Positions 21,258-64,000 of a DNA stretch of 64,000 nucleotides are shown here, piece by piece. The stretch's first letter is position 1. Every line of letters begins with the position of its first letter. The position numbers were made by a program, and so were the translations under genes. The notes below the pieces were generated by a model, which ran no database searches, was not told the origin of the DNA, and saw only the letters and a program-made list of their open reading frames with translations. This DNA is from Escherichia phage BP9: the sequence record PP488543.1; one strand, 5' to 3'.

Positions 21258-22748
21258 GTGGCTAAGTATGGATTGACAGAGGCTGGTTTCGTTATACCAA
21301 CCCTAAATGACCTAATCGTTGAAACTAAGCAAAGCCTGATCCGTGCTTTTGGCGAAAACTTCAACGTACAGAGTAACTCCGTTGCAGATAAGCTGACCAC
21401 TATCTTCAACGAGCGAGAGTATCAACTTATTCTTATGGCAGCATCTGTATACGCATCACAGACGCTGTATGGGGCAGAAGGTATTTACCTAGATGAGCTT
21501 CTTGGAAGACAGGGTATTTACCGAAGAGGCCGTTCTAAATCATCAGGTACCTGCCAGTTGACAATCAACACAACTGTGCCGTACAATATGATTTATGATT
21601 CCAAAACTTATACGCTGGACAGTGGCAACTTTGTTCTTAGCAACGATGTGCAAGTAGCAGGGAATCTTATTGCTCACAGAATAAATGCTCCAGACCTAAG
21701 GATTGGGAAATACAACTTCCAAATTACCAACCAGACAGATGGAAGTATCAAAACAAAAAGCCTGGTTTTAACAGATAAGTCTCTGGACTCTTCTGATTTG
21801 CCAAGCTTTTACGGAGAGATTAAGCAATTCATTGTCGATAATACAACCCTGTTGAACGACGATTTGATTCAGATCGATATGTTGACAGGGACGTTGTGGA
21901 TAGGGTACAATTCAAATCTTGATCAAGTTGGACTTAATAGCAGAGTAGATTTCAGAGTATCCCCGATTGTAGGGGAAAGAACTATCACACTGGATGTTAT
22001 CGCTAACGAGGCTGGTGAGCTGTCAAGAGAAGCAGAAACCGTGACAACAATGTCGCCTACTCCTAGTGGATTTATCAAGCTTACCAACCGAGAAAGATTC
22101 AATGAGGGCAGGGATGTTGAGAAAGACTCAGAGTATCGCTTAAGAGCTTCCAGCACAAAACAGTTAACATCGAAGGCTACCCGTCCTGCAATCCTTAGCG
22201 CTGTAAGCGAGGTAAAAGGTGTTGAGAAAGTGAGAGTGTTCTCCAACAACACCGATAAAACTGATGCTAAAGGTATACCTCCTTACAAGTTCCAAGTGGT
22301 TGTGTTTGGTGGTGCAACGGAGGACATTTGCCAAGCACTTTACCAAACTATAGCCTGTACGAACAGGACTTATGGTAATATTTTCTACGATATCACTACA
22401 TCTGACGGTCAAACTGAAAGAATTTATTACTCCAGGGCAAATACCTACCGCCTAGATGTAAGAATTACCTATTCCGGCGCTGCGCTTTCCACAACCGAAA
22501 AAGATGCCATTGTAGAGGCTCTTTTGCAGGTTGTTAACGGACTTGATGTTGCAGATACGTTGTACAATATCCAATTGGTCGGTGCTGCATCCGCTGCTGT
22601 GTCGATAGGTAGATTTAATAGACTGGTAATTCAAGTTAAACCAGTAGGAGCTTCTGATGAAGCTTACACGACAAACGATATTGTTGCGAACATGACCGAG
22701 GTGTTTGACCTCGACGAAAGTAATATAACTTTCCAACAAACTATTTAA
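21258..22748 (+). CDS. putative baseplate wedge protein (baseplate J / gp6-like)
   Basis: GTG start with GGAGG Shine-Dalgarno. N-terminus MAKYGLTEAGFVIPTLNDL...FGENFNV resembles the N-terminal pattern of baseplate J-family proteins as I recall it; downstream partner of a gpI-like position. Not verified. Confidence 0.4.
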   Translation: MAKYGLTEAGFVIPTLNDLIVETKQSLIRAFGENFNVQSNSVADKLTTIFNEREYQLILMAASVYASQTLYGAEGIYLDELLGRQGIYRRGRSKSSGTCQLTINTTVPYNMIYDSKTYTLDSGNFVLSNDVQVAGNLIAHRINAPDLRIGKYNFQITNQTDGSIKTKSLVLTDKSLDSSDLPSFYGEIKQFIVDNTTLLNDDLIQIDMLTGTLWIGYNSNLDQVGLNSRVDFRVSPIVGERTITLDVIANEAGELSREAETVTTMSPTPSGFIKLTNRERFNEGRDVEKDSEYRLRASSTKQLTSKATRPAILSAVSEVKGVEKVRVFSNNTDKTDAKGIPPYKFQVVVFGGATEDICQALYQTIACTNRTYGNIFYDITTSDGQTERIYYSRANTYRLDVRITYSGAALSTTEKDAIVEALLQVVNGLDVADTLYNIQLVGAASAAVSIGRFNRLVIQVKPVGASDEAYTTNDIVANMTEVFDLDESNITFQQTI

Positions 22749-33700: not shown

Positions 33701-36345
33701 CCATGTCTATGCAAATCCCAGTAACAAATGGGTACAAACGTGTTGTAATGATCATTAAGTGCGACCTAATAGGTAAACAAGTTCTTGCGGAAAACGGTAC
33801 CTCCACACATCCTTTTGAGATCGCTCTACACTATCAGTTTGCTGACTCGCCTTTTGCAGGTGATAAGAGAATATCTGATACAGATACACAGCGTTGTAAG
33901 AAGGTGTTGTTAGGTGCAGGTTGGTGGTGGTATGAATTTGATTTAACAGACAAATTCACCGACACGTCAAAAGTTGTAACGGGTCTTCGCCTAGACCTTG
34001 GCGAGAACATGCATAAAGCTGTTTGTGATGGCACCTATGGTGATCCTACAGTATATCTAAAGTATGTCTCTTTTGAGCATCCGGAAGATGTTGTTTACGG
34101 TCCAAAACTGAGATTGTTTGGCAGTTGGATTGCAAAAGACAGGGTAGGCATGGGTAAAAAGGTAAGAGGGTTCTTAGTTGATGCAGGAACAGAGGACATG
34201 CTGGTTAATGCAGTATGGCCTGAATTGCCCGGCACTCAGTGGGATAACTCTGCCAAATCTATAAACTGGTTCAACATTCACAGGGCTATGTGGACCACTA
34301 ACTGCTACTTGTGGAGAGAGCTTAACGATCAGGCTTTTGGCTTCAGCAACGGCAGAAGGATGGCAATCATTTGCTGGACAACGCTGCAAAGGTGCTATGA
34401 CCATGACTACGAGATTGGCGGTAGGGCATGGAAAAATATCAGGGATAGAATCATAACCAATTTTGCAGACGACAACGGAGGTGGAGCACATAACTTCGGC
34501 ACAAGTAGACTTATTCACTTGAATGGGTCATCTGCATATAAGAAAGAGGGTTATTCTGGGTCTATGATCGAGTGGGGTCTGGTGAAAGATGCTCGCGTAT
34601 TGATGGGTCAACAACTTGCTGCTGCAATAGGACCTAACGCAGTGCAGTCTGTTAAACCAGCGTGGTTCGATATCCCAATATGGTCATCTGGAACACCAGG
34701 AACTGCGGCAATCAACCCTACCACTGGGGATCTGGAAATCTCTTGGGAGGACTTAAAGCAGGTTGGTGGCTGGGATAAGACTGGGTACCAAGTGCAATGG
34801 TGGAGATCTGACGGATCGTTAGCGGCTGATGAGTTTGTTAAGGACAATTTCTACACTATGTCCTCTGCAAAAGCACAGCAATTGTTTGGTCAAGCAACTC
34901 CGTCAACGATCACTATGTCTATGTGCTGTAAAGATACCAGGACTGGAGCTCTGGGGCCAAGGGTTGCTAAAGTTTTCTCAGGTATTAAGTGGAATCTTCC
35001 TGTTCAAAGTGTTTCATGGAAGCAAATAGGTGATAACAAGCTACTGGTTACTCCTGCCTGCCAGTTCAACGCAACTCTCAACGTTGACCCAGCTGTTGCA
35101 GCAAACTCGGCTAGAGCTTCTGACTTCTCTGTGTCTAACACTGCCATGGCAGATGTGAGAAAGATTGACACACTGAATGCCAGAATTACCTGTAAAAACA
35201 CTTATGGCACATTCCAGATCATCAACAACTTTACAGATGTTGATTCTAAGGCAGTGAGGACAGCCAGCCAGACTATGCAGTTAGGCACTCTGGCATACTC
35301 TGCACTGATCACTGAACAGTCTCCTACCCTTCAGGGTGGGGGTGTTGGTAAGTTGATTACAACTCCTGTATGGAAGCCAAATGAGTGGGTTGTATTCGAT
35401 TTGACTGTGGACTTCTCCAGTGATAATAACTGGACATGGGTAAGGAATTGTTTGTCACAGCTGATGGGTGGCCCAAACTCCATTAGTGATAGCCATGACT
35501 CTACTGACCCGAGTGTGTTCCAGGTTGGTAAAACTCACCCAGAAACTGGGGCACAGTTGCCTGACAGGAAGTATGCTTTGGTTTGCATCTCCAACGGCAA
35601 GGCAGATGTAACCTTCTCAGGGACACACACATATAACGGCACTTACAACTTCTCTAAAAAGTACAGCCTCAAGGCAGGTAACATTGTAGACGAGGTTGGT
35701 GCGTTGTATAATCCGGGAAACGGGATAGGGATTGTAGGTGGTAAACTGCAGATGCAGGAACCTTCTATTACCCCTTCCAATGTGCCAGGAATCAGAAAGA
35801 CTTGGGAAAGTAGTAATACCAACATTGCAACAGTGGATGCCACCACAGGATTGGTAACATTTAAAGCTACTGGGAATGTCACCATAAAGTTTGTAGTTAC
35901 AGATGATGCAGGGCGCAAAACGTCTTCAACATCTTTTACTGTCAAACAGATGGCACCGCAGTGGAGAATGTGGATAGGTACAGCAACAAACGGGGCATAC
36001 CCTAATCCGGCAGGTACTTCTGGTATGAAGACTTTCTCTACAAGCAAACCGATGGAGTACGGCAGCGGTCCTAAGGTAGGGCAGATGGTGTACTTTGGTG
36101 CGTATATTCCTGAAATTATAGGGCTTCCGAGAAGTCAGCTTCAGTTGCTGTTTGGGGCTGGTGTTGACGATCTTGCCACTTTCGGGTATAGCGACAACAT
36201 CGAGGCTGCAAGGAGTTCAGGATGGGTAGGGTTCAGAATGGAGTCTGGAAAGGAAGGCAGGATTCTAGGGACAGCCTCTATAGGTGTTATGTTCCCTGGT
36301 GACCAGCAGTATCGTCTAGAAGCCTACGCAACCTTTTCTCGTTAA
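30709..36345 (+). CDS. giant virion-associated protein (1878 aa) with N-terminal RCC1-like beta-propeller repeats and a C-terminal Big_2 Ig-like domain
   Basis: RCC1-like repeats (ITGYNRFGECRTGD, YGSGNNTYGSLH); Big_2-like segment VPGIRKTWESSNTNIATVDATTGLVTFKATGNVTIKFVVTDDAGRKTSSTSFTV; last gene of the fibre cluster before a bidirectional terminator. Confidence 0.5.
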   Translation: MLPIPLLKLGRHFLDKRGGVKELAVLSYPIDNSDGTSTTVAYVNSLAILFDDGQLNITGYNRFGECRTGDLDTINYPNEAAWNVDHVWRADRAFVIRTFDNQFFYIGCTAGLIGSDAAGGNDVCVREWTPLPEQIVKGLHLDTHPERLVEVMGGINNTVWVMAEAEGTGILHLYGSGNNTYGSLHVDKNQHATPVKIGETSENPETGPWKNPSINCEVHDNSVIFGGPKGFWIAGYDFLRNNSRNDLVWPPAQITRDDLRGIPADEEWKGFMCGPNGAVVVTQRMHRPDDQQLVNVFYGQNIWGDDTWRSLNLTYTHEVIMARGYGTSGIFFNNGTKQYRGFSRNLCNDIGAQSANNSPRDNFIHYQALATAKYVEQRLPVSWTESVYFQGIHREGFLGTFTVVNGKLWWSGIPRGSFAGSNNLFGGRLNSQGFTEVPENWYKNVPVDSWGVDDIFDVNGVSSVSNIYIGDTVKMKLKPQPEGATFIIDKIELVNAAGTVVTDANYQFSTNWNHGGANEVIVTQYNRNVNRRGLYSVKITYHDKHGTGRTHTTRTLNWNTIVPAYPSDGKWHTVGRNKQFHVNDTVYFGLNAAQPAVEGDTSYMVRLHRMDAGSVTYDVTQEIYNQRRNTYDNLVQTQALWEFNPNGRGGKMLQVNEQNGTSLTVHEHPNPWPDPGKPNSGARTLKIVSHDVGYFGIRWEATVRYADGTTNNIGITLGGTSENNSLKIAYTPRGISIDNMDVVRNGYGDVNIKVTLGEHLGGERIIMYAFDHDPRTNGTYADQAWSYLISAPEPNTKEFYYGMKRDVCKKTGTHDWIAICVKDERTAWNEPVNRWFIGIPTRSDKYVEEYIVCMGGTNLNMCWNGDANNKYSDYDYMRDYSCNQWFNQPGYADRQARVNPAIFTDTQVFLTKQANEVQTFKNKYDPNKWFYNCYGAFFWGPGELPGGGSCFESATYASDYIMGQVKKYKIIPGPETLGNAVDPYIVMTALRSNMDGTSMSMQIPVTNGYKRVVMIIKCDLIGKQVLAENGTSTHPFEIALHYQFADSPFAGDKRISDTDTQRCKKVLLGAGWWWYEFDLTDKFTDTSKVVTGLRLDLGENMHKAVCDGTYGDPTVYLKYVSFEHPEDVVYGPKLRLFGSWIAKDRVGMGKKVRGFLVDAGTEDMLVNAVWPELPGTQWDNSAKSINWFNIHRAMWTTNCYLWRELNDQAFGFSNGRRMAIICWTTLQRCYDHDYEIGGRAWKNIRDRIITNFADDNGGGAHNFGTSRLIHLNGSSAYKKEGYSGSMIEWGLVKDARVLMGQQLAAAIGPNAVQSVKPAWFDIPIWSSGTPGTAAINPTTGDLEISWEDLKQVGGWDKTGYQVQWWRSDGSLAADEFVKDNFYTMSSAKAQQLFGQATPSTITMSMCCKDTRTGALGPRVAKVFSGIKWNLPVQSVSWKQIGDNKLLVTPACQFNATLNVDPAVAANSARASDFSVSNTAMADVRKIDTLNARITCKNTYGTFQIINNFTDVDSKAVRTASQTMQLGTLAYSALITEQSPTLQGGGVGKLITTPVWKPNEWVVFDLTVDFSSDNNWTWVRNCLSQLMGGPNSISDSHDSTDPSVFQVGKTHPETGAQLPDRKYALVCISNGKADVTFSGTHTYNGTYNFSKKYSLKAGNIVDEVGALYNPGNGIGIVGGKLQMQEPSITPSNVPGIRKTWESSNTNIATVDATTGLVTFKATGNVTIKFVVTDDAGRKTSSTSFTVKQMAPQWRMWIGTATNGAYPNPAGTSGMKTFSTSKPMEYGSGPKVGQMVYFGAYIPEIIGLPRSQLQLLFGAGVDDLATFGYSDNIEAARSSGWVGFRMESGKEGRILGTASIGVMFPGDQQYRLEAYATFSR

Positions 36346-49838: not shown

Positions 49839-50738
49839 ATGATTTTCATCTACGAACATTTCAAAACCCGTAAAGAAGCAAGAGACCGCCGTGCAGAACT
49901 TGAGAAGAAGGGTTTCATATGTGCCATTGAGAAAGGCGACACAACCTGGACACTGGCAGTTGGTGCCCCAGAGTTGTTCGATCCTGACCGTGACAGCGTC
50001 TGCTACACCCGTGAAGATTTTGAAACCCGCGAAGAGGCCCGTTTATTTCGATACGGTCTGGAAGATAACGGTAAGTACGCCATGATCTTAGATTTAGGCG
50101 AAGGGTCCGTTAAACGTTGGGGCGTGGTATACCCACTGTGTGTTGTTCATGGTGTGGGGTTCACTGGGGTAGCAATCAAGTCAGAAGAACCTTTAGTAGA
50201 AGTCAAAGATCCGGTGCTGGAGGTGGTGAGCAGTGTATCTCAGCAACAGACTCGAAGTATTGAGCCTTTGGTAGTTATTTGTGGGGAACTCCTCCAGATC
50301 ACCTGCAACGAAGGCATTTTTGAAATTCGCCGCAGTGAAAGTGAGGAAGTTTACCAGAAAGTCTTCGACCATATCTCTGTCCAGAAATATGACGAGGCAA
50401 TTGGTGAAATCCTTGTCTGGTTGGAACGCAAGAATGAGTTCACTACACTTGCAGACAACCTGATCATGAAAGATGGTAAGCTCTACTACTACGGTGTAGA
50501 GATGCGATCCACCATTGCAAAGAAAATTGAGAAAGATTATGCAGACGGAACACTAGATGACCGCTATGTGAAATTCCTAGTTCGCCTGCTACGCAATCCT
50601 TCTGCAAAATCTGTAAACATGCTCTACGATTTTATGCAGGCCAACGATATCCAGCTTGCAGAAGATGGTCGAATCATTTGCTACAAAGGAGTTCATTTTC
50701 CATCGTTTTTTTGCCGAGCAGGAGCTGGAGTTCTTTAA
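49839..50738 (+). CDS. hypothetical protein with two N-terminal repeats; 3' end replaced by IS2 sequence (possible rIIB-like partner, unverified)
   Basis: Repeats [19 protein letters not shown] / [18 protein letters not shown]; the last ~17 codons are encoded by IS2-derived DNA (IS2 homology begins at about 50688), so the native C-terminus is lost. Confidence 0.4.
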
Positions 50739-50976
50739 TCTGCTTCATGGCAGCAGCAAGTTCAGAGGCAGGAACGACCTGTTCTCCTGCGGCCACAGCA
50801 GTAAGACTTCCCTCCTGGTATTGCTTGCGCCAGAGAAATAACTGGCTGGCTGCCACACCGTGTTGCCGGGCAACAAGGGAGACCGTCATTCCCGGTTCAA
50901 AGCTCTGCTGAACAATAGCGATCTTTTCCTGTGTAGTACGCCGTCTGCGTTTCTCCGGTCCTAAGACATCAATCAT
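50674..50976 (-). pseudogene. insC: truncated IS2 insC (orfA) reading out of the IS fragment into phage DNA
   Basis: InsC N-terminal ~96 aa are intact, then the frame runs across the junction at about 50688 and terminates at 50674. Confidence 0.8.
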
Positions 50977-51067
50977 CTGCTCTCCAATGACTAGTCTAAA
51001 AACTAGTATTAAGACTATCACTTATTTAAGTGATATTGGTTGTCTGGAGATTCAGGGGGCCAGTCTA
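50688..51067 (-). mobile_element. IS2 fragment (left inverted repeat plus 5' part of insC/orfA), truncated internally
   Basis: Reverse complement matches the IS2 left end TAGACTGGCCCCCTGAATCTCCAGACAACCAATATCACTTAAATAAGTGATAG... and the start of InsC ([84 protein letters not shown]..); only ~380 bp of the 1.3-kb element is present. Confidence 0.9.
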
Positions 51068-53359: not shown

Positions 53360-53532
53360 CATGGCATTTTTCATGGTACTGATTTCCGGTGACGGTATAT
53401 AAAACGGTACGGTAAAAATTGAGATTTGGAAAAATGTTATCACTCAATTGGTTATGGTATCCGTAAATAATTGAGTGGGAATGATTAACAGCTAACTCAT
53501 AGCAAATCATTCCTATTCAGATGCTAACTCAA

Positions 53533-53566: not shown

Positions 53567-53676
53567 TATTCATTTCTATTCACTCTACACCATATTTTTC
53601 GGCGGTACAGGTGACGGTATTACCTTAAAGGTATACTCTCATACCGTCATGAAAATGGTTTCTATATGGGTGAATT

Positions 53677-54935: not shown

Positions 54936-55595
54936 CTATCCTTCCTGGACTTTGGTAAGCGTCAGATTTCCGCAGAACACTGCGCCGGTGTCGATGTACA
55001 TCTGGTTTGCATACACCAGTGGGTGATGTGCTGGCGTATGACCGAAGATGAACAAATCGGCACCGGTTATCTCCGAGACAATACCGTCCTGCGCGTCGCT
55101 AACCCGCTCACGATTCCATATCACCATTTCTTCTGGTACTGGCTTATCGAATGCGTATTCGTTGTGCGGGTAGTCTGCGTGACAGATGACGACCTTCTTA
55201 TTGCCGGTAACCAGTTCGATAATCATCGGGAGGTTGGTAATCTTTGGCAGAAGGTATTTGAGTTGCACATCCTGCTCAGAATCAAGTTGGTGCCACCATC
55301 CACCGCCGTTTGACATCCAATGTCCGAAACTTCCGCCGTTGACCAGTGCATCCAGCATCATCTGCTCATGGTTGCCACGAACAGCTCGGAACCACGGCAT
55401 AGTAATCAAATCCAGGCATTCGACGTTTTCAGCGCCGCGGTCAACAAGGTCACCAACGGAAATAAGTAAATCGCGCGCCGGGTCGAATGAAACTTTGTCG
55501 AGTTCGTTCATCAGCAGCGTGTAGCACCCATGCAGATCGCCGACGACGAAGATATTGCACCAGTCAGCACCATTGATGCGTTGATATAGGTTCAT
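54936..55595 (-). CDS. Ser/Thr protein phosphatase (lambda NinI / PP-lambda-like metallophosphatase)
   Basis: Metallophosphatase motifs GDLHGC, GDLVDRG, GNHE. The probable start is the internal Met ([12 protein letters not shown]) at about 55595, giving ~219 aa and a 4-bp overlap with the upstream gene; the track ORF extends to 55715. Confidence 0.85.
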
Positions 55596-56242
55596 GCTGC
55601 ACGCTCCCGCCCCTGGTTGTCTATTGGTGACACCGGAGCATTGCTGAATGCATTTGTTAATCCGCCAATATCCAACGCGTATCCAGGGTGTAGTTGCACT
55701 ACCGGGTCTTCGCACTGATTACCCCAAACATCGAAGCCATGAGACGTCTGGCGGGCGAACAGTTCAATGCGAGAAACATCGCCTAACAATTGCACAAGTT
55801 TTTCACGAACGACATCTGGTTTTCTTGAATGCTCAAGCCGCGGTGCGGTAAATGCCTGAACGATCCCTGCATTAATGCGTGGAGGTAGTTTTCCCTTTAC
55901 TGCAAACAGGCAATCTTCACTATTGGCGCGAGTCATGTGTCCCATACCCATAACCAGTTTATCTGGTTGTCGACTACCACATTTTATCCACGTGAAGCCC
56001 TTCATCGTCATCAGACGAAATCCCCAGGCTTCAACAACTTTTAGTGCTTCGAGTGGTTGTGTTGGCACCCACCACATGGCCAACAGACAGTTTTCATCGG
56101 CCAAATCCCACACAGGAAGGCGGCAGATATCCAGCACACTCATAACCGGATATTTAAAACCGGCACCGCGATTACCATCTGCGGCTTTGTCCCGGTATAC
56201 CCAGGGTGGATCTGCATAGATTAGCGTGTATTTCTTAGTCAT
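55592..56242 (-). CDS. MT-A70 family N6-adenine DNA methyltransferase (orphan, no cognate nuclease seen)
   Basis: Catalytic DPPW motif ([10 protein letters not shown]) and the MT-A70 fold pattern. Confidence 0.8.
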
Positions 56243-58701: not shown

Positions 58702-59012
58702 GCCGCGTCCTTCTGTCCATCAAGCTGATCCGCCAGATCCCAGCGGGCGATAATTGCCATTGCCTCTCGCCGGTAGGCATCCATTAGTTCTTCGAACTCA
58801 GGGCTGTCTTTAGCGGCCTCCAGCACTTCCTGACGAACGCCTTTGCCTGTTACAACGTCAAAAGTTGAGGCCAGTTGATGAAGCCGGATACTCTCAATCA
58901 GTTCGACTTGTCGGTCATATAGCTGTTCTGACAGGCGGTAGTCCTTGTCGAATGCCAGCATGATTTTTTGAAGATTTTTCTGCTGATTAACGTTCATTAT
59001 CAGCCCTCCCAT
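58698..59012 (-). CDS. hypothetical early protein (104 aa)
   Basis: ORF in the leftward early operon, at the position held by gam/kil-type genes in lambda; no motif recognised. Confidence 0.35.
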   Translation of the reverse strand: MGGLIMNVNQQKNLQKIMLAFDKDYRLSEQLYDRQVELIESIRLHQLASTFDVVTGKGVRQEVLEAAKDSPEFEELMDAYRREAMAIIARWDLADQLDGQKDAA

Positions 59013-59171
59013 ATCTCGTTATCGTTGGCCACATCGCGAGCTTCTTTGCTGACGAAAGCCCACTTAATGCCTTCCTGTAAGGTGCGGAACTTCCAGCTCA
59101 TGAATCCGCATGCAGTAACGCAGTACCAACCGTTGATGATTTTCCACTGCATAACTTGTTACCTCGGTCTG

Positions 59172-59186
59172 TTACCGTTGAGGTAA
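59172..59186. promoter_or_regulatory. operator half-site pair TTACC-N5-GGTAA (leftward early promoter region)
   Basis: TTACCgttgaGGTAA; an extra TTACC half-site lies 9 bp upstream. Confidence 0.5.
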
Positions 59187-59232
59187 TGATTATGCGTATT
59201 TGGTTTGGTGTCAATAGATATGAGTTAAAAAA

Positions 59233-59249
59233 ATTACCCTTAAGGTAAT
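59233..59249. promoter_or_regulatory. 17-bp operator ATTACC-N5-GGTAAT (leftward early promoter region)
   Basis: ATTACCcttaaGGTAAT, perfect inverted half-sites, located between the repressor terminator and the leftward early genes. Confidence 0.6.
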
Positions 59250-59260
59250 TGTGTAGACAA

Positions 59261-59283
59261 TAAAAAAGCCGCCAGAAGGCGGC
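59261..59283 (-). terminator. rho-independent terminator of the repressor gene
   Basis: On the minus strand gccgcc-ttct-ggcggc followed by a U-run (the plus strand shows AAAAAA then gccgcc-agaa-ggcggc), 20-45 bp downstream of the repressor stop. Confidence 0.7.
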
Positions 59284-59305
59284 TTACTTACTGAAAAATA
59301 TGATT

Positions 59306-59890
59306 TTATTGTTTGTTTTTTTCGTTCTGGTTGATGACAAATTCAATGTAACTTTCGATCTTTGCTTTCTCGGTTTCGGGTAACAATGCGTAGCGCGAGC
59401 GGTCATAGTTGATGGTCGCAGGGTCGTGCGGGTGAATCAGTAATTCATAGCCGTGACGCCCGAATGCGGATGCAACATTCTCCAGGGTGGAAATGGAAAC
59501 GCTGACCTCATTGTTTAACAGGCGGCTGATTGTCACCTGGGCGACGCCGGATGCGCGGTGAAGTTTTCCCTGTGTTGAAAGGTCGCGGCTTTCGCTCATC
59601 CAGCGTTCCAGGTTGTGAGCCGCCAGCTGACCAATGTCGCTTGGGCCGACAGGCTGAAAACCTTCCTGAGAAAGCGAGCGATCGATATCAAGCCAGTTAC
59701 GGGGTTTATTGGCGGCAGCTTCAATTTTTCGCGCAACCTGGTCGCCGATAACCTTCTTGCCAAGAGCCCAGCGGTTTACCAGATTTGCCTGAGTTCCAAG
59801 TTTTTCTGCCATCCGCGTCTGAACACCATTGAATTCACGGTCGATCAAGTCGTTGAGATTTTGCCTGCGGACGTCCTGGATACTTTTCAT
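59306..59890 (-). CDS. CI-like repressor with helix-turn-helix domain(s) and no recognisable LexA/S24 peptidase domain
   Basis: Divergent from a cro-like gene; helix-turn-helix segment QTRMAEKLGTQANLVNRWALGKKVIGDQVARKI and a second HTH-like segment ASGVAQVTISRLLNNEVSVSISTLENVASAF; operators on both sides. Confidence 0.6.
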   Translation of the reverse strand: MKSIQDVRRQNLNDLIDREFNGVQTRMAEKLGTQANLVNRWALGKKVIGDQVARKIEAAANKPRNWLDIDRSLSQEGFQPVGPSDIGQLAAHNLERWMSESRDLSTQGKLHRASGVAQVTISRLLNNEVSVSISTLENVASAFGRHGYELLIHPHDPATINYDRSRYALLPETEKAKIESYIEFVINQNEKNKQ

Positions 59891-59944
59891 TTTCTGGAAA
59901 ATCGCCTCGTATATGAATCAGTAGATGATTCAATTTAAAGCAAT

Positions 59945-59961
59945 ATTACCCAACAGGTAAA
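59945..59961. promoter_or_regulatory. 17-bp operator ATTACC-N5-GGTAAA in the divergent repressor/cro control region
   Basis: ATTACCcaacaGGTAAA, 55 bp from the repressor start. Confidence 0.6.
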
Positions 59962-59990
59962 TGCACCCCATAGGTAACTATCCTTGATTT

Positions 59991-60019
59991 TTGTTACCTT
60001 ATGGGTGAATATTTATTAT
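59991..60019 (+). promoter_or_regulatory. putative rightward early promoter (TTGTTA-17 bp-TATTAT) with overlapping operator TTACC-N5-GGTGA
   Basis: -35 at 59991-59996, -10 at 60014-60019; the imperfect operator at 59994-60008 lies in the spacer; cro-like ATG at 60045. Confidence 0.45.
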
Positions 60020-60044
60020 CTGAAATAAATATCAGGCAATAGCT

Positions 60045-60275
60045 ATGAGCGATAACGGACATTTCGATTTCAAAAAGCACTGGCTTGCACTTACTCCGGA
60101 TGAGCGTGAAGCCTTCGCACAGGAAGCCGGAACGACGAGTCACTATATCCAGACTCACTTAACAGGTAAGCGCAAAATGCCAGGTAAAGTATTGATGAAT
60201 GGGCTTTTTAAAGCCTGTAAAACAAGACAATGGCTGCGCTCAAAAGCAGAACTGGCATACTTCTTCTACTCATGA
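60045..60275 (+). CDS. Cro-like / YdaS-like small DNA-binding regulator (76 aa)
   Basis: Small basic protein transcribed divergently from the repressor, in the canonical cro position. Confidence 0.5.
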   Translation: MSDNGHFDFKKHWLALTPDEREAFAQEAGTTSHYIQTHLTGKRKMPGKVLMNGLFKACKTRQWLRSKAELAYFFYS

Positions 60276-60425
60276 TATCCAGCCACAACCCTCTGTAGAC
60301 CGCCACCCGGCGGTCTTTTCATATCTATTCGCACCTCAAAGGTAATAAAAAACCAAATCTGGTTGATCTTTTTTTTGTGTCAGCACAAAATGACCGTAAT
60401 CCCAATACTAATAACAGGGCTTACC

Positions 60426-60626
60426 ATGGAAATCATTACACGTATTGATGCCGCAAAGCGCGGACTTAAACGCTACTACACCGGAAAACCATGTAAGCAC
60501 GGACATGACAGTGAACGTTGGGTTTACAACGGACACTGTGTTGAGTGCACCATGGAATCAAACCGTCGCATCAGGGCTGAGATTAAGCAGATCATGATTA
60601 ATTCCTCCCCACAACATTCAAGCTGA
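60426..60626 (+). CDS. small zinc-binding protein in the cII position (about 66 aa from the internal ATG)
   Basis: CKHGHDSERWVYNGHCVEC Cys/His cluster; the track ORF starts at 60363 but its N-terminus is hydrophobic junk-like, so the internal Met is preferred. Confidence 0.4.
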   Translation: MEIITRIDAAKRGLKRYYTGKPCKHGHDSERWVYNGHCVECTMESNRRIRAEIKQIMINSSPQHSS

Positions 60627-60641
60627 TAGCGGAGATTAATC

Positions 60642-61433
60642 ATGAGCAGACATGCAACAGATTGGGCCTGGGAGACAGATCCAGGTAGCTCATCATTAAA
60701 GCTCATACTGCTCTCGATGGCTGACAGAGCCGATGAATATAACCTCTGCTACCCCAGCATAGAACGCCTCGTTAAAGACACTTGCCTGAATAAAAAAACC
60801 GTGCAGGCCGGGCTTATATCGCTCATGAAAATGGGGCTTATTTCAGATACCGGAGAGAGAAAGGGAGCGACAAAAAGAGTGCGGGTTTTCTCTCTTAATA
60901 TAACCAAAAACGGGAACATTAAAGGCAACCGGGAGGGGGGCAATGAACCCGAAAACGGTAATGTTACCGAAAACGGGAATATACCCAAAAACGGGATGTT
61001 GAATGATCCCAAAAACGGGATCCAGAACCAGTCATATAACCAGTCATTTAACCAAGAGAGGGAGAGCAGGACAAAAAACGGGGATTCTGTGCCTCATGAC
61101 CCCGACGCAAACAACGCCGTGATGAATAACTTTGTTCCTCCTGGTGGGCCAGGGCAATTAGGCAAATTTGTCATGCATGAACAATGGCAGCCATCAGATG
61201 ACTTTCTTCGGAAAAGCTCATTGCAGGGGATCTACCTGGACAGTCTGCCAACGGCACAGGAACTTGCAGAGTTCAGAATTTACTGGATGGCTGAGGGTAA
61301 GGCATACCATCAGGCACAGTGGGAGCAGAAGCTGGCAAGGCGGCTGCAGATTAGCAGACAGAAGCAATCAACATTACCTGATAACAACGTTCCGCACTGG
61401 AACAGCCCTGAAGCATGGGAGGATTTCTTGTGA
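60642..61433 (+). CDS. replication initiator / replisome organiser (lambda O-like) containing the putative origin
   Basis: N-terminal winged-helix pattern like lambda O; six AAAACGG(G/T)AA iterons lie inside the gene; directly followed by a lambda P homologue. Confidence 0.65.
   Translation: MSRHATDWAWETDPGSSSLKLILLSMADRADEYNLCYPSIERLVKDTCLNKKTVQAGLISLMKMGLISDTGERKGATKRVRVFSLNITKNGNIKGNREGGNEPENGNVTENGNIPKNGMLNDPKNGIQNQSYNQSFNQERESRTKNGDSVPHDPDANNAVMNNFVPPGGPGQLGKFVMHEQWQPSDDFLRKSSLQGIYLDSLPTAQELAEFRIYWMAEGKAYHQAQWEQKLARRLQISRQKQSTLPDNNVPHWNSPEAWEDFL
60906..61088. repeat. iteron array (six copies of about cc.aAAAACGG(G/T)AA), candidate origin of replication
   Basis: Copies begin near 60906, 60951, 60968, 60986, 61011 and 61073, inside the O-like gene, followed by an A/T-richer stretch with ccagtcat repeats. 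Confidence 0.6.
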
Positions 61434-62215
61434 ACAACGTTTTTACCGCGATACAAAACCGTGACGGAGAAGCCCTTTCTCGCATGTCAGGTTATGAGCA
61501 TCAGTACGTCAACAATGACAATGTGGTGAACATGTCAGCAGAGAGGCTTGTTGATGCCCTTTTTAAACAGCTGAAACAACTGTTTCCGGCGGCAGTGGTA
61601 ACCAACCTGAAGACGCCAGAGCAGGAAGTTGCTGCAAAACAGCAGTGGATTGCTGCGTTTGCCGAAGGGGGGATCCGAACCCGTGAACAGGTTTCTGCTG
61701 GTATGCGCCACGCCCGCGCCAGTGAATCTCCGTTCTGGCCGTCTCCAGGGCAATTTATCAAGTGGTGCAAAGACAGCAAGATGGTTCTTGGCGTCACCAT
61801 TGACGATGTGATGGCGGAGTTTCACCGGTACAGCAAGGAAAAAAGTTTATATCCTGGTGGTCCCGAAAGATTCCCGTGGCGACATCCGGTTATGTACTGG
61901 GTCGTATGTGATACCCGCCGCGCAATGTATCAGCGCCAGCTTAGCGAGATTGAGGTTGAGAAACACGCACGCAGGCTGCTCGATGATTGGGCGAAAAAGG
62001 TGGCTTCCGGACAGCAGATACCCGATCCGGTGATCAGCATACAGGCAAAGCCAGAACCCATGAGTACGCCTCCGGACACAGGGAGAGACGTTTACCATCC
62101 ACCAGGGCGAAGTTTCGGGTGCATGCCTAACGCCGCCACCCTTGGGGGAATAACACCGGCGCAGTGGCTGATGGAGGAATACAGGCGGGGAAAGGCGGCA
62201 GGATTTATCAAGTAA
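61415..62215 (+). CDS. P: replication protein P homologue (DnaB helicase loader)
   Basis: Strong similarity to lambda P: AAFAEGGIRTREQVSAGMRHARASESPFWPSPGQFIKWCKD versus lambda LAFRENGITTMEQVNAGMRVARRQNRPFLPSPGQFVAWCREE. Confidence 0.85.
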   Translation: MGGFLVNNVFTAIQNRDGEALSRMSGYEHQYVNNDNVVNMSAERLVDALFKQLKQLFPAAVVTNLKTPEQEVAAKQQWIAAFAEGGIRTREQVSAGMRHARASESPFWPSPGQFIKWCKDSKMVLGVTIDDVMAEFHRYSKEKSLYPGGPERFPWRHPVMYWVVCDTRRAMYQRQLSEIEVEKHARRLLDDWAKKVASGQQIPDPVISIQAKPEPMSTPPDTGRDVYHPPGRSFGCMPNAATLGGITPAQWLMEEYRRGKAAGFIK

Positions 62216-62220
62216 TACCA

Positions 62221-62240
62221 GCGCGATAGCGCATTTTTTT
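62221..62240 (+). terminator. rho-independent terminator after the P-like gene
   Basis: gcgc-gata-gcgc hairpin followed by attttttt, beginning 6 bp after the P stop. Confidence 0.5.
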
Positions 62241-62245
62241 ACGTC

Positions 62246-62274
62246 TTGATAATTACCTGTTGGGTAATAAAATA
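62246..62274 (+). promoter_or_regulatory. repressor-gated promoter: TTGATA -35, 17-bp operator ATTACCtgttgGGTAAT as the spacer, AAAATA -10
   Basis: The 17-bp palindromic operator (62252-62268) exactly fills the spacer between the -35 (62246-62251) and -10 (62269-62274) hexamers. Confidence 0.55.
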
Positions 62275-62313
62275 TTCTAAAATCTATTGATTTCGTGTCT
62301 TATGTGGTTTTTA

Positions 62314-62330
62314 ATTACCTTAGAGGTAAA
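62314..62330. promoter_or_regulatory. second operator ATTACC-N5-GGTAAA overlapping the Shine-Dalgarno of the 62333 gene
   Basis: ATTACCttagaGGTAAA ends 2 bp before the ATG at 62333; the GAGG ribosome-binding site is inside the operator. Confidence 0.55.
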
Positions 62331-62332
62331 TC

Positions 62333-62680
62333 ATGAGAAAACAGATACAGGCTCTTGGTCGACTCAAAACAGGCCAGATGAACAAAACAGAATCTGCGTA
62401 TTGCCAGCACCTTGAGCAGCGTAAACGTGCAGGGGAAATCGCCTGGTATCGATTCGAGGGTATTAAGCTGCGGTTAGCTGACAACACGTTCTATACGCCC
62501 GATTTCGCTGTGATGCTCGCCACCGGAGAGATGGAACTGCACGAAGTGAAAGGGGGATTCTGGACCGACGACGCCAGGGTGAAAACCAAAGTAGCCGCAG
62601 ATCAGTATCCGTTCCGAATCATCGGGGTAACGGTTAAACCAAAGAAAGCAGGTGGCGGCTGGAACATCGAAGAGTTCTGA
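62333..62680 (+). CDS. DUF1064-like PD-(D/E)XK nuclease-fold protein (115 aa)
   Basis: Pattern ..MNKTESAYCQHLEQRKRAGEIAWYRFE..L.LA..TFYTPDFAV....ELHEVKGG....AR.KTKVAADQYP matches the DUF1064 layout with a PD..E.K core. Confidence 0.5.
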   Translation: MRKQIQALGRLKTGQMNKTESAYCQHLEQRKRAGEIAWYRFEGIKLRLADNTFYTPDFAVMLATGEMELHEVKGGFWTDDARVKTKVAADQYPFRIIGVTVKPKKAGGGWNIEEF

Positions 62681-62741
62681 ATCGACGATCTTTTTAGTTA
62701 TCAATGTAATCAATAAGTTATGTGGATAAGCGAGGGTAAAG

Positions 62742-63278
62742 ATGGAAAGTAATATCAAAGGGTTAGTTTCCGCCGGGCATGAGATGGCTTCGGAACTGAA
62801 AGCTGAATGTGGTGCCGTTGATATGCGTAGTGTGGCAAAGCTGCTCAGCGATTTGGCAACGCAACTGGAAGTGCAACTGGTGCGTGCTAATGCGCTGGCA
62901 GCGGAGAGTGCGGGGCTGAAGTCTGCGCACCCTCAACCATTCGGACATGAGATGATGAAGGCTCTTGATGCGTATGAGAAGCATCAGGATGAAGTGCCAG
63001 AGACTGGAATGCTCAATGCATTTTTCATCTTGCGCGACAGCATCCGTGTTGACACCCCAGCCACCGACGCTTTCCTGGCTGAAGTACGGGCGCAGGGCGT
63101 GGATGCTGCTATAGAAGCTGCAAAAAATCTGGTGGCCCAAGAATATGAGTATAAGGATTTCAAAGCGGCGCAGAGTGATTGCTGTATGCACCCTGGTTCA
63201 GACCTGGTAGGGAAGGTTGAAATGACTGAGTGGTTAGTTGACTTTGCTGCCCAGCTTCGCAAAGGAGGCAACCAGTGA
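62742..63278 (+). CDS. hypothetical protein (178 aa)
   Basis: ORF in the rightward operon; 4-bp overlap with the downstream gene. Confidence 0.4.
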   Translation: MESNIKGLVSAGHEMASELKAECGAVDMRSVAKLLSDLATQLEVQLVRANALAAESAGLKSAHPQPFGHEMMKALDAYEKHQDEVPETGMLNAFFILRDSIRVDTPATDAFLAEVRAQGVDAAIEAAKNLVAQEYEYKDFKAAQSDCCMHPGSDLVGKVEMTEWLVDFAAQLRKGGNQ

Positions 63279-63826
63279 GCGAAATTAATTACCAGGCACT
63301 GCGTGAGGCGGCGGAACGTGCAATTCCAGCAATGGAACGCCTGTTAATGTTGCCAGCTGATGATGATTTGTTAAGTGAACAGGAACTTAAAGATTACGGT
63401 GTGGATATTGATGCGCTCAACGCCTTCAAATTTCTGGCCGGACCAGAAACCGTGCTGGCACTACTGGATGAACGGGAAAGGAACCAGCAATACATCAAAT
63501 CCCGCGACCAGGAGAACGAGGATATTGCGCTAACGGTAGGGAAGTTGCGCGTTGAGCTGGAAGCAGCAAAATCAAAACTCAACGAGCAGCGTGAGTATTA
63601 CGAAGGTGTTATCTCTGATGGGAGTAAGCGCATAGCAGAGTTAGAAAGTGGTTCTCAGGCACAAAAGTTAGTTGAAGCAATCATTGTTGCGATAGAAAAC
63701 GAACAGGAACGTCTTTTTGATGAAGATTACCTAATGGATTCGAAAGAATGCATTGACGTAATTCGTGAAGAAGTAAAGCGATGGGATGATTCCCGCGCCG
63801 CTGGCATTGGCATCAAAGGAGAGTGA
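63275..63826 (+). CDS. ead/Ea22-like coiled-coil protein (183 aa)
   Basis: N-terminus MSEINYQALREAAERA resembles the Ea22-family start as I recall it; acidic coiled-coil rest. Confidence 0.4.
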   Translation: MSEINYQALREAAERAIPAMERLLMLPADDDLLSEQELKDYGVDIDALNAFKFLAGPETVLALLDERERNQQYIKSRDQENEDIALTVGKLRVELEAAKSKLNEQREYYEGVISDGSKRIAELESGSQAQKLVEAIIVAIENEQERLFDEDYLMDSKECIDVIREEVKRWDDSRAAGIGIKGE

Positions 63827-63828
63827 TA

Positions 63829-64000
63829 TGGCAACTTTGACAAAAAAAGAACAAGCATGGTTGAGCGAATTACAGGACGTTCTTGATCGCTGCCCATCAC
63901 CGAAAAAAATTGGTTTTTACACCATTGGCGATAAAAGCATTTACCTGTATGACCTGCGCCGCATGGATGAAATCATGGAGGCTCTTGATAATCGTTCGTC
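63829..64000 (+). CDS. hypothetical protein, 3'-truncated at window end
   Basis: ATG at 63829 (MATLTKKEQAWLSELQDVLDRCPSPKK...) with the frame open to the window edge. Confidence 0.35.

Follow-up and report, generated by a model that had tools for sequence, protein, structure and literature searches.

In the 64,000-nucleotide stretch of DNA from Escherichia phage BP9 analysed here (PP488543.1; hereafter the window), positions 62221–62332 are probably a promoter-operator cassette internal to the early region of a temperate phage of the ε15/phiV10 type (Uetakevirus), laid out on the plan of the phage's own leftward early promoter PL. Judged by its sequence, the cassette is real and functional-looking, and it is best read as the control region of a separately repressor-controlled unit, because genuine immunity operators under strong selection are combined with a terminator-like element before a PD-(D/E)XK nuclease gene. 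The original prediction had proposed such a separate unit, and all of the features on which it drew (a hairpin followed by seven T residues, two palindromes, promoter-like hexamers and a DUF1064 gene) were recovered in place.

Downstream of the stop codon of the P-like gene (62213–62215), two exact TTACC-N5-GGTAA palindromes are present, neither being assigned to a strand: operator 1 (TTACCTGTTGGGTAA, 62253–62267) and operator 2 (TTACCTTAGAGGTAA, 62315–62329). The proposal that both are copies of the immunity operator is borne out, as the same motif flanks the repressor gene, and positions 62253–62269, which contain operator 1, form a 17 nt inverted copy (100% identity) of 59944–59960 beside that gene. 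The second operator was also correctly said to overlap the Shine-Dalgarno sequence of the next gene, its right half being the GAGG (62323–62326) that precedes the DUF1064 gene. The sites of the cassette fit the operator of the ε15-type (Uetakevirus) repressor Rep, a 15–17 bp palindrome of the form (A)TTACC-N5-GGTAA(T), and are identical to the sites annotated in ε15. With at most one mismatch allowed, 11 occurrences of the motif were counted in the window (1.6 expected), a total that none of 100 shuffles attained, and the six exact copies all fall within 59172–62329, around the repressor gene and the post-replication cassette.

The immunity repressor Rep is encoded on the minus strand (59306–59890), displays two helix-turn-helix regions and no peptidase domain in Pfam, and is a full-length homologue of Rep of Salmonella phage SPC32H (5D50 chain A, 5d50_A; E = 4e-42, residues 1–190). 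The rep terminator (59285–59266) precedes the OL/PL module (59172–59248, minus strand), in which operators at 59234–59248 and 59172–59186, 62 bp apart, flank PL (-35 TTGACA at 59214–59209; -10 at 59191–59186). On the plus strand, the OR/PR region (59946–60019) carries operators at 59946–59960 (exact), 59963–59977 (two mismatches) and 59994–60008 (one mismatch), together with PR (TTGTTA (59991), 17 nt, TATTAT (60019)). A gene for a Cro-like 76-aa protein (60045–60275), which matches phrog_35 ('transcriptional repressor'), is then followed by the terminator t1 (60297–60316, plus strand) and a degenerate operator, GCACCTCAAAGGTAA (60331–60345), whose equivalent has a single mismatch in phiV10 (33112) and L091 (8012). 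Together, t1 and GCACCTCAAAGGTAA represent the first instance of a 'terminator then operator' punctuation in the rightward early region.

Sequence diversity was assessed across 77 near-identical copies of the region, which is present in E. coli in roughly 530 copies. The half-sites of operator 1 were invariant (π = 0.000) and those of operator 2 nearly so (π ≤ 0.005), as against π = 0.44 and 0.21 for the respective spacers, which points to strong purifying selection on the half-sites of both operators. The 5-bp operator spacers, which Rep presumably does not contact, and the patch adjacent to operator 1 evolve several-fold faster than nearby third codon positions (π = 0.04 and 0.12 in the flanking genes, compared to 0.44 in the spacer of operator 1). 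Such speed could stem from repressor binding that is itself mutagenic, from sequence transfer among the operators or from selection that adjusts the strength of the individual promoters.

The operator pair, with a separation of 61–62 bp, was identified in phiV10, SPN1S, BUCT554, two Klebsiella phages, Tyrion and ε15, as well as in prophages of Superficieibacter, Erwinia, Klebsiella, Citrobacter and Scandinavium, and is carried by every ε15-like relative examined. Furthermore, all Rep homologues found (41–78% identical to that of the window) use TTACC/GGTAA half-sites, and neither the search of viral contigs with Rep (80 loci, in which Rep was 100% identical) nor the search of genomes with a Rep alignment returned a relative with different half-sites; among the remoter, N-terminal-only matches of the genome search the TTACC/GGTAA motif was not found. 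The cassette survives replacement of the gene to its left, as nucleotide homology with SPN1S and BUCT711 begins exactly at 62219/62220, and it is likewise kept in Tyrion, L091, L092, L094 and ε15, in which a RuvC-like resolvase gene occupies the DUF1064 slot. The motif excess, the presence of the pair in relatives and the invariance of the half-sites rule out that the operators are chance or incidental occurrences, one of the outcomes that would have undermined the original prediction.

The terminator-like element t2 (62221–62240, plus strand) consists of GCGC (62221–62224), a GATA loop, GCGC (62229–62232), an A and seven T residues (62234–62240). That an element of this kind lies here, as had been claimed, is clear: including the T run it is invariant among the 77 close copies (π = 0.000), its hairpin is kept with a differing loop in distant relatives and its T run in all relatives, the equivalent hairpin of the Klebsiella relative L004 is predicted to have six pairs, and the phiV10 record annotates its counterpart as a putative terminator. 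However, the unqualified designation as a terminator has to be softened, as the stem of only four G-C pairs falls below the five-pair rule of the terminator scan and the fold, at -8.7 kcal/mol (z = -2.1), is weak beside those of the other two terminators nearby (-15 and -18.7 kcal/mol); t2 is probably leaky. No Rfam match near gathering scores was observed for 59000–64000.

Two candidate promoters were compared. The promoter initially proposed, P1 (62246–62273, plus strand), comprises TTGATA (62246–62251) and TAAAAT (62268–62273) and is the top consensus match in 58900–64000 according to the promoter scan (10/12). Its hexamers do flank operator 1, in agreement with the earlier description of the operator as the promoter spacer; however, the length of 17 given for that spacer is obtained with AAAATA as the -10 element, and 16 nt separate the hexamers when TAAAAT is used. 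The second candidate, P2 (62287–62315, plus strand), is located between the operators and is composed of TTGATT (62287–62292; 4/6 consensus matches), 17 nt and TTTAAT (62310–62315; 5/6, with T at position 2); it is missing from the list of the promoter scan because its -10 element lacks the normally critical A at position 2. The start site predicted for P2, at approximately 62322, falls inside operator 2 and would give a leader of only approximately 11 nt, and the centre of operator 1 lies at approximately -62 relative to P2. The hexamers of P2 are invariant in 76 of the 77 close copies and its TTGA is invariant across genera. A promoter-like match on the minus strand (62301–62274) and minus-strand open reading frames at 62320–62487 and 62474–62758 were treated as spurious on the grounds of overlap with the conserved plus-strand gene and of missing support in annotated relatives.

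The layout around P2 is that of the phage's own PL/OL region, in which a terminator, an operator, 19 nt, CTATTGA (-35), 22 nt and a further operator occur in the same order with the operators 62 bp apart; in the window and in six relatives the registers of P2 and PL agree to the base. Additionally, the spacer of the promoter-distal operator and the terminator-adjacent patch are hypervariable in both regions. The two regions differ in that PL possesses a consensus TTGACA and a -10 element with A at position 2, that its ribosome-binding site lies beyond the operator, and that the remaining sequence between the operators is unrelated.

It was considered whether P1 is instead the functional promoter, alone or in tandem with P2, in which case operator 1 would serve as its spacer and operator 2 as an auxiliary site or roadblock over the ribosome-binding site. 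Besides matching the consensus better than any other site in the 5-kb region, P1 retains its -10 element in all relatives (as TAAAAT, CAAAAT or TACAAT), would yield a leader of normal length (approximately 53 nt), and would parallel PR of the same phage, where an operator is also situated within the spacer. Its -35 element, however, is situated where the region varies most (π = 0.205 in the 77 copies): only 12 of these close copies have TTGATA, and in other genera, which show CAATGA, AGCACA or CACACA at this position, the hexamer can no longer be recognised, and a TG extension that might offset the missing -35 element was not detected. Nor would P1 explain the near-invariant CTATTGATT...TTTAA or its identity to PL, and TAAAATAT, a conserved A/T-rich sequence, might belong to P2 as an UP-like element. 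A functional P1 is therefore considered unlikely, and the conserved promoter-like element is P2, which mirrors PL, so that the promoter probably lies downstream of its originally predicted location.

The other readings either dispense with a local promoter or place the use of the sites mainly in the lytic cycle. If the DUF1064 gene and the genes beyond it were expressed by read-through of t2, the operators could act as a roadblock or as anchors for long-range bridging by Rep to OR and OL, stabilising repression of PR and PL in the manner of the lambda OL-OR interaction. The weakness of t2 and the imperfection of both candidate promoters would fit read-through, and bridging over the 2307 bp from OR to operator 1 would suit a tetrameric Rep with a p53-like, looping-type tetramerisation domain, as described in PMC9986798. 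Yet the cassette copies PL, which is necessarily a promoter, including the exact place of the -35 element, the -35-like TTGA of P2 is invariant across genera, and the strictly conserved hairpin with its T7 run suggests that it is important to shield the unit from transcription arriving from upstream; this account is thus deemed improbable. Use of the sites mainly in the lytic cycle, by the Cro-like 76-aa protein or a late regulator, such that they would set timing rather than lysogen silence, seems very improbable. Proteins of the Cro type commonly bind the operators of the repressor, and the phrog_35 match of the 76-aa protein is in keeping with this. With regard to a late regulator, phiV10, SPN1S and BUCT554 carry ATAT(G/A)(T/A)GGTT in their late units, 30–42 nt beyond the single operators, and TATGTGGTT at 62301–62309 might accordingly mark an activator-dependent promoter similar to the late ones; its register relative to the -10 element, however, differs from that of the late promoters, and lytic use would in any case be compatible with control by Rep, the motif being the one that flanks rep.

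The first gene behind the cassette (62333–62680, plus strand; ATG at 62333) was expected to contain a PD..E.K core, and the comparisons agree with a PD-(D/E)XK nuclease of the T7 endonuclease I type. Its product matches Pfam PF06356 (DUF1064) just over threshold (26.2 bits, cut-off 24.7), its homologues also carry PF06356, and E20, P56-D57 and E71-V-K73 are invariant among 27 homologues. Profile comparison by hhalign with T7 endonuclease I (gene 3) gave a probability of 91% and 40% identity over 53 columns, a likeness limited to the catalytic core, in which D57/E71/K73 align on D55/E65/K67 of the T7 enzyme (YTPDF...E.KG.W). A profile search of the PDB yielded weak matches to T7 endonuclease I (1m0d, 1fzr and 3cae; E = 0.21, not significant alone), a single-sequence search of the PDB returned no match, and the AlphaFold2 model (27-sequence alignment, 79–98% identical) was unusable at a mean pLDDT of 47.6. 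The nuclease assignment also draws on PMC1189080; the resolvase SPP1 G44P, considered as a DUF1064 protein, proved to be RusA-like and was discarded. The protein further matches phrog_190 ('Holliday junction resolvase', E = 1e-43), and because of this label and of the RuvC-type replacement at the same slot an ordinary phage resolvase of Holliday junctions is its most likely identity. The suggestion that it is a nuclease in need of special gating was not upheld, as ε15-type genomes carry 13–15 operator sites, located before the terminase, portal, tailspike, lysis and int genes, at PL and PR and at the post-replication unit; with an operator on nearly every transcription unit, the DUF1064 gene is not singled out.

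The cassette has close counterparts in related phages. The ε15 record (GenBank AY150271.2) already labels the counterpart of operator 1 'protein_bind repressor' (35906–35922), an annotation which is itself a prediction: ATTACC-N5-GGTAAT lies between the last replication gene and the resolvase gene, with a hairpin and T7 run upstream, and a second site follows at a distance of 62 bp, where it overlies the ribosome-binding site. In ε15 a RuvC-like gene takes the downstream place of DUF1064, the upstream genes differ, and the record annotates the first site alone, leaving the promoter and terminator without annotation. The ZX5 paper mentions four predicted promoters and no operators. SPC32H, besides its Rep homologue, shares the DUF1064 gene, which follows the corresponding region there as well, and its near-identical relative SPN1S is among the carriers of the operator pair. 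The Rep/Ant switch of SPC32H (PDB 5D50, 5D4Z; Kim and Ryu 2013; Kim et al. 2016) is described in PMC9638917 and PMC9986798, according to which Rep binds palindromic sites as a tetramer and is released by the antirepressor Ant. In BP9, the antirepressor gene lies outside the window.

In lambda, antiterminated transcripts from PR extend into the post-P genes, which lack an operator of their own. The nin region of lambda uses the same slot after the replication genes for a structure-specific nuclease (the resolvases Rap and RusA) and small accessory genes, but a terminator and a dedicated operator pair intervene in BP9. The equivalence of the resolvases that occupy this slot in lambdoid phages is pointed out in PMC3485210. 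The arrangement was thus correctly called atypical by comparison with lambda; among ε15-like phages, however, it is universal. The C1 repressor of phage P1 has many dispersed operators and mycobacteriophage L5 has stoperators, and both share with the ε15-type phages a single immunity repressor with sites at many separate transcription units. The repressor family is an unrelated one, and L5 stoperators are asymmetric, intragenic and orientation-dependent, whereas the ε15-type sites are palindromic, intergenic and promoter-associated; the BP9 sites do not conform to the stoperator type, being palindromic, intergenic and promoter-proximal.

The preferred reading, a PL-type promoter between two Rep operators, would operate as follows. 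The short and probably leaky t2 would end the replication-gene transcript; it is succeeded by operator 1, an A/T-rich stretch, TTGATT, the 17-nt spacer and TTTAAT abutting operator 2, an operator that overlies both the start predicted for transcription and the ribosome-binding site ahead of the first gene. While repression holds, an SPC32H-type Rep tetramer may occupy both operators, which are expected to lie on the same face of the DNA because their centres are 62 bp apart (approximately six helical turns), and bracketing would close the promoter. Upon induction, removal of Rep, achieved in relatives by the antirepressor, would allow P2 to fire alongside PL and PR and to drive the putative Holliday-junction resolvase together with the accessory genes that are closely packed behind it. 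Where relatives are complete, this operon ends with a putative regulator directly before the terminase genes. A more far-reaching model, which is offered as a tentative and rather doubtful one, has a single p53-like, tetrameric repressor govern the whole ε15-type genome through dispersed operators; at PL and at the post-replication promoter, one tetramer would clamp two operators 62 bp apart and so enclose the promoter in a micro-loop. Closure of a 62-bp loop by a single tetramer would be tight, a point against the proposed bridging.

By sequence comparison, the cassette is the normal design of the whole ε15/phiV10 group and of a kind already known, the ε15 site being annotated, and these findings do not overturn current understanding. 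Existing records could be supplemented with the second operator and the promoter, and DUF1064 proteins in the post-replication slot could be named putative T7 endonuclease I-like resolvases; gating does not mark such a protein as a dangerous nuclease, because nearly every ε15-like transcription unit carries an operator. Phages of the ε15/phiV10 type, which are common in E. coli (approximately 10% of complete genomes), Salmonella and Klebsiella, serve as reporter and typing phages, and the terminator-operator-promoter-operator arrangement represents a compact, portable cassette that should respond to Rep and the antirepressor. With respect to their biology, these phages appear to depart from the lambda scheme, in which one rightward promoter and antitermination serve the post-replication genes: their early region would be split into units, with a terminator at the end of each and transcription restarted from a repressor-gated promoter that belongs to the unit itself.

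All elements of the original prediction were found where it had placed them. The TAA stop codon of the P-like gene (62213-62215; Pfam Phage_lambda_P, E = 1.5e-56) is followed by the terminator-like t2, in which a GCGC/GATA/GCGC hairpin (62221-62232) and a single A lead into seven consecutive T residues (62234-62240). The predicted promoter, P1, comprises a TTGATA -35 (62246-62251) and a TAAAAT -10 (62268-62273, followed by an A/T-rich stretch) on either side of operator 1, the palindrome TTACCTGTTGGGTAA (62253-62267), while operator 2, the palindrome TTACCTTAGAGGTAA (62315-62329), includes GAGG at 62323-62326 and precedes a 115-codon ORF with its ATG at 62333 and its end at 62680. A second candidate promoter, P2, lies between the operators (TTGATT at 62287-62292, a 17-nt spacer and TTTAAT at 62310-62315).

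The operator motif TTACC-N5-GGTAA, with at most one mismatch, occurs 11 times in the 64 kb as compared to 1.6 expected, and none of 100 shuffled sequences reached 11. Six copies are exact, all inside 59172-62329, including two to the left of the repressor gene (59172 and 59234), one to its right (59946, followed by degenerate copies at 59963 and 59994), and operators 1 and 2. Over 17 nt, operator 1 perfectly matches the operator adjoining the repressor gene in inverted orientation, confirming its proposed identity as the immunity operator. The repressor gene (59306-59890, minus strand) encodes two helix-turn-helix regions and no Pfam peptidase domain, and its product, Rep, is homologous over its full length to a repressor of known crystal structure, that of Salmonella phage SPC32H (5d50_A, E = 4e-42). 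The latter is described, in the discussion of PMC9638917, as a tetramer on palindromic sites that is freed by an antirepressor, and its tetramerisation domain, in PMC9986798, as akin to p53 and the DNA-looping repressor Rco.

Comparison with the post-P region of relatives sided with the original prediction on the operators, as an exact operator pair, 61-62 bp apart, was present just upstream of the first post-replication gene in every relative examined, i.e. phages phiV10, SPN1S, BUCT554, ST512-KPC3phi13.3, BUCT711, Tyrion and ε15, and prophages of Superficieibacter, Erwinia, Klebsiella, two Citrobacter species and Scandinavium, the Rep proteins of these relatives being only 41-78% identical to that of the window. 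The cassette is kept where the gene to its left differs, nucleotide homology with SPN1S, SPC32H and BUCT711 starting at 62219/62220, where the hairpin region begins, and likewise where the gene to its right differs, a RuvC-type resolvase of ~153 aa replacing the DUF1064 gene in Tyrion, ε15 and related loci L091, L092 and L094.

Among 77 copies from phages with identical Rep, nucleotide diversity (pi) was 0.000 for the hairpin and T-run, 0.000-0.005 for the four operator half-sites and 0.004 for the P2 hexamers TTGATT and TTTAAT. The corresponding values were 0.44 for the operator 1 spacer (27 different pentamers), 0.21 for the operator 2 spacer, 0.205 for the 12 nt from the T-run to operator 1, and 0.04 and 0.12 for third codon positions of the P and DUF1064 genes, respectively. 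Such unvarying half-sites inside a hypervariable patch are the sequence signature of a site that would be contacted by protein. The hypervariable stretches in the close copies (L011-L090) correspond to 62241-62262 and 62320-62324, and the promoter-distal OL operator displays the same hypervariable-spacer pattern. Candidate causes are a hotspot for mutation where the DNA is bound, sequence transfer from one operator copy to another, or selection.

P1 (TTGATA-16-TAAAAT) is the top consensus match in 5 kb (10 of 12 positions) and its -10 is kept as (T/C)AAAAT or TACAAT; however, its -35 sits in the hypervariable patch, TTGATA being present in 12 of the 77 close copies and replaced in other genera by CAATGA, AGCACA, CACACA and so on, and thus P1 was only partly upheld. 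When compared with the reverse complement of OL/PL, the operators and promoter to the left of rep, the post-replication region shows a base-for-base identical layout, both in the window and in six relatives: a terminator T-run, ~9-12 variable nt, an operator, 19 nt, CTATTGA(C/T), 22 nt and an operator. The rep terminator before PL is equivalent in position to t2 before the cassette. Since PL is the sole promoter available to the leftward early operon, its post-replication twin, P2, would by analogy also be a promoter. With the predicted P2 start at ~62322, operator 2 falls at ~+1 and operator 1 at ~-62; the A/T-rich TAAAATATT, which is conserved, would occupy the UP-element position. The weak points of P2 are a -10 without A at position 2 and a leader of just ~11 nt. 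Overall, P2 (alone or with P1) appears more likely than P1 alone.

The predicted terminator received mixed support. The t2 stem has four G-C pairs and a GNNA-type loop that varies in relatives (GATA, GGCA, AGCA, GGAA); t2 is strictly conserved and its phiV10 counterpart is labelled a putative terminator, but it falls short of the 5-pair criterion of the terminator scan, with a folding energy of only -8.7 kcal/mol (z = -2.1), compared to -15 and -18.7 kcal/mol for the terminators downstream of the cro-like gene and of rep. It is thus probably a real, but leaky, terminator.

The gene downstream of the cassette encodes a DUF1064 protein (26.2 bits in Pfam; cut-off 24.7) matching phrog_190, 'Holliday junction resolvase' (E = 1e-43), and E20, P56-D57 and E71-x-K73 are unchanged across 27 homologues. 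According to PMC1189080, DUF1064 belongs to the PD-(D/E)XK superfamily, its fold-recognition templates including TnsA, and T7 endonuclease I was the template for families related to DUF1064. A PDB profile search returned weak matches only, three of the four being T7 endonuclease I, while hhalign aligned the family with T7 gene 3 (91% probability, 40% identity over 53 columns), D57/E71/K73 falling on catalytic D55/E65/K67. These findings support the nuclease fold, and bear out the PD..E.K core, originally proposed. The AlphaFold model (pLDDT 47.6) was too poor for use. Based on the family and profile matches and the RuvC-type resolvases swapped in at this slot, the best functional call is a putative junction- or branch-resolving nuclease, which would correspond functionally to Rap and RusA of the lambda nin region (equivalence: PMC3485210). 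The DUF1064 coding sequence shares 76.6% nucleotide identity with a Pseudomonas phage F116 gene (21902-22231), and Vibrio, Erwinia, Burkholderia and Serratia phages also have matches; this suggests that the gene cassette moves between host genera, apparently without the operator module.

A repressor-gated promoter after P had been considered atypical, yet this feature is the rule in this genus. In the complete phiV10, SPN1S, BUCT554 and ε15 genomes, the motif (exact or with one mismatch; ~0.04 exact matches expected per 39 kb, as genome length / 4^10) recurs at conserved intergenic sites: before the genes for the small terminase, a small protein preceding the portal, and integrase, before the lysis cassette, in the tailspike region, at OL and OR (2-3 sites each), at the post-replication pair, and after the terminator following the cro-like gene, this last site being absent in SPN1S and ε15 at one mismatch or fewer. 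Seven operator sites in the ε15 record (AY150271.2) are labelled 'protein_bind: repressor', of which 35906-35922, between the replication gene and the RuvC-like gene, is the exact counterpart of operator 1; the operator 2 counterpart and any promoter are without annotation. Single operators of the late units are located at 3252, 20877 and 24692 in phiV10 and at 3203, 20041 and 24808 in SPN1S, and also occur in BUCT554; 30-42 nt past them stands a conserved ATAT(G/A)(T/A)GGTT, 7 nt and a -10-like TAATAA or TATAAT, the lysis promoter alone having a good -35. The motif may mark late promoters for recognition by a phage regulator. TATGTGGTT occurs at 62301-62309, just before operator 2, and ATCTGGTT after t1, the terminator following the cro-like gene.

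The rightward early region comprises three units: PR, the cro-like gene and t1 (60297-60316); a degenerate operator (60331-45), a small gene, a DnaT-like initiator gene with putative iterons, P and t2; and operator 1, promoter, operator 2, resolvase and Eae/Ea22-like genes, which in complete relatives continue without gaps up to a putative regulator (phrog_536) that immediately precedes the terminase genes. The degenerate operator reads GCACC...GGTAA and is surrounded by sequence blocks common to other modules; near t1, TCATATCTATTCGCACC resembles the PL -35 region and ACCTCAAAGGTAATAAAAAACCAAAT shows 88% complementarity with 62302-62327. The replication genes have a candidate promoter consisting of TTGATC (60363), 17 nt and CAAAAT (60391). 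Five direct repeats of ~18-21 nt (consensus near AATATAACCAAAAACGGGAA; 18-45 nt spacing; 60896-61021) sit inside the DnaT/HTH_36 initiator gene (60642-61433); like those in lambda O, they are probably iterons of the origin.

The cassette region is 96-98% identical to phiV10, PAS61, ZX5, TL-2011b and similar Uetakevirus (ε15-like) podophages, and is present in 530 of 5426 complete E. coli genomes. The window is composite, as ε15-like homology starts only at ~51562, within a lysis-cassette membrane-protein gene, and 29000-50700 shares 95% identity with rV5-like (Vequintavirinae) 136-kb myoviruses; the assembly may be chimeric, and the post-replication finding is unaffected. An IS-type ORF lies at 50674-51021 (minus strand). 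The att core ATTGAGTGGGAATGATT (sequence from PMC9782041) at 53470-53486 has the lysis genes to its left and int to its right, all contiguous, which is the layout of phage attP and not of an integrated prophage. Between the att core and the int start, TTACCTTAAAGGTAT (53620-53634) is kept with the same one-base departure (GGTAT) in phiV10, SPN1S, BUCT554, ε15 and several prophages, and integrase and RNase III sites are predicted in the equivalent ε15 region; TTACCTTAAAGGTAT is a candidate Rep operator or recombination-related site. Directly after int, a minus-strand ORF (54936-55715) contains the lambda-type Ser/Thr protein phosphatase motifs GDLHG, GDLVDRG and GNHE, its slot being occupied by a small DUF1382 gene in phiV10 and strain AR_0086.

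The core of this arrangement is already predicted for the type phage ε15; added here are the paired-operator design identical to PL, a promoter with better support, the role of the cassette as a fixed mosaic boundary, the swapping of resolvase types, the link to T7 endonuclease I, and the hypervariable operator spacers. Beyond the sequence architecture, we infer that in the repressed state Rep would occupy both operators, the centres of which are 62 bp (~5.9 helical turns) apart, either as one tetramer clamping both or as cooperating tetramers. Either mode would block the -10 together with the start site and ribosome-binding region, while t2 would keep upstream transcription out of the post-replication unit. 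Removal of Rep by an antirepressor would then allow the post-replication promoter to fire in parallel with PL and PR.
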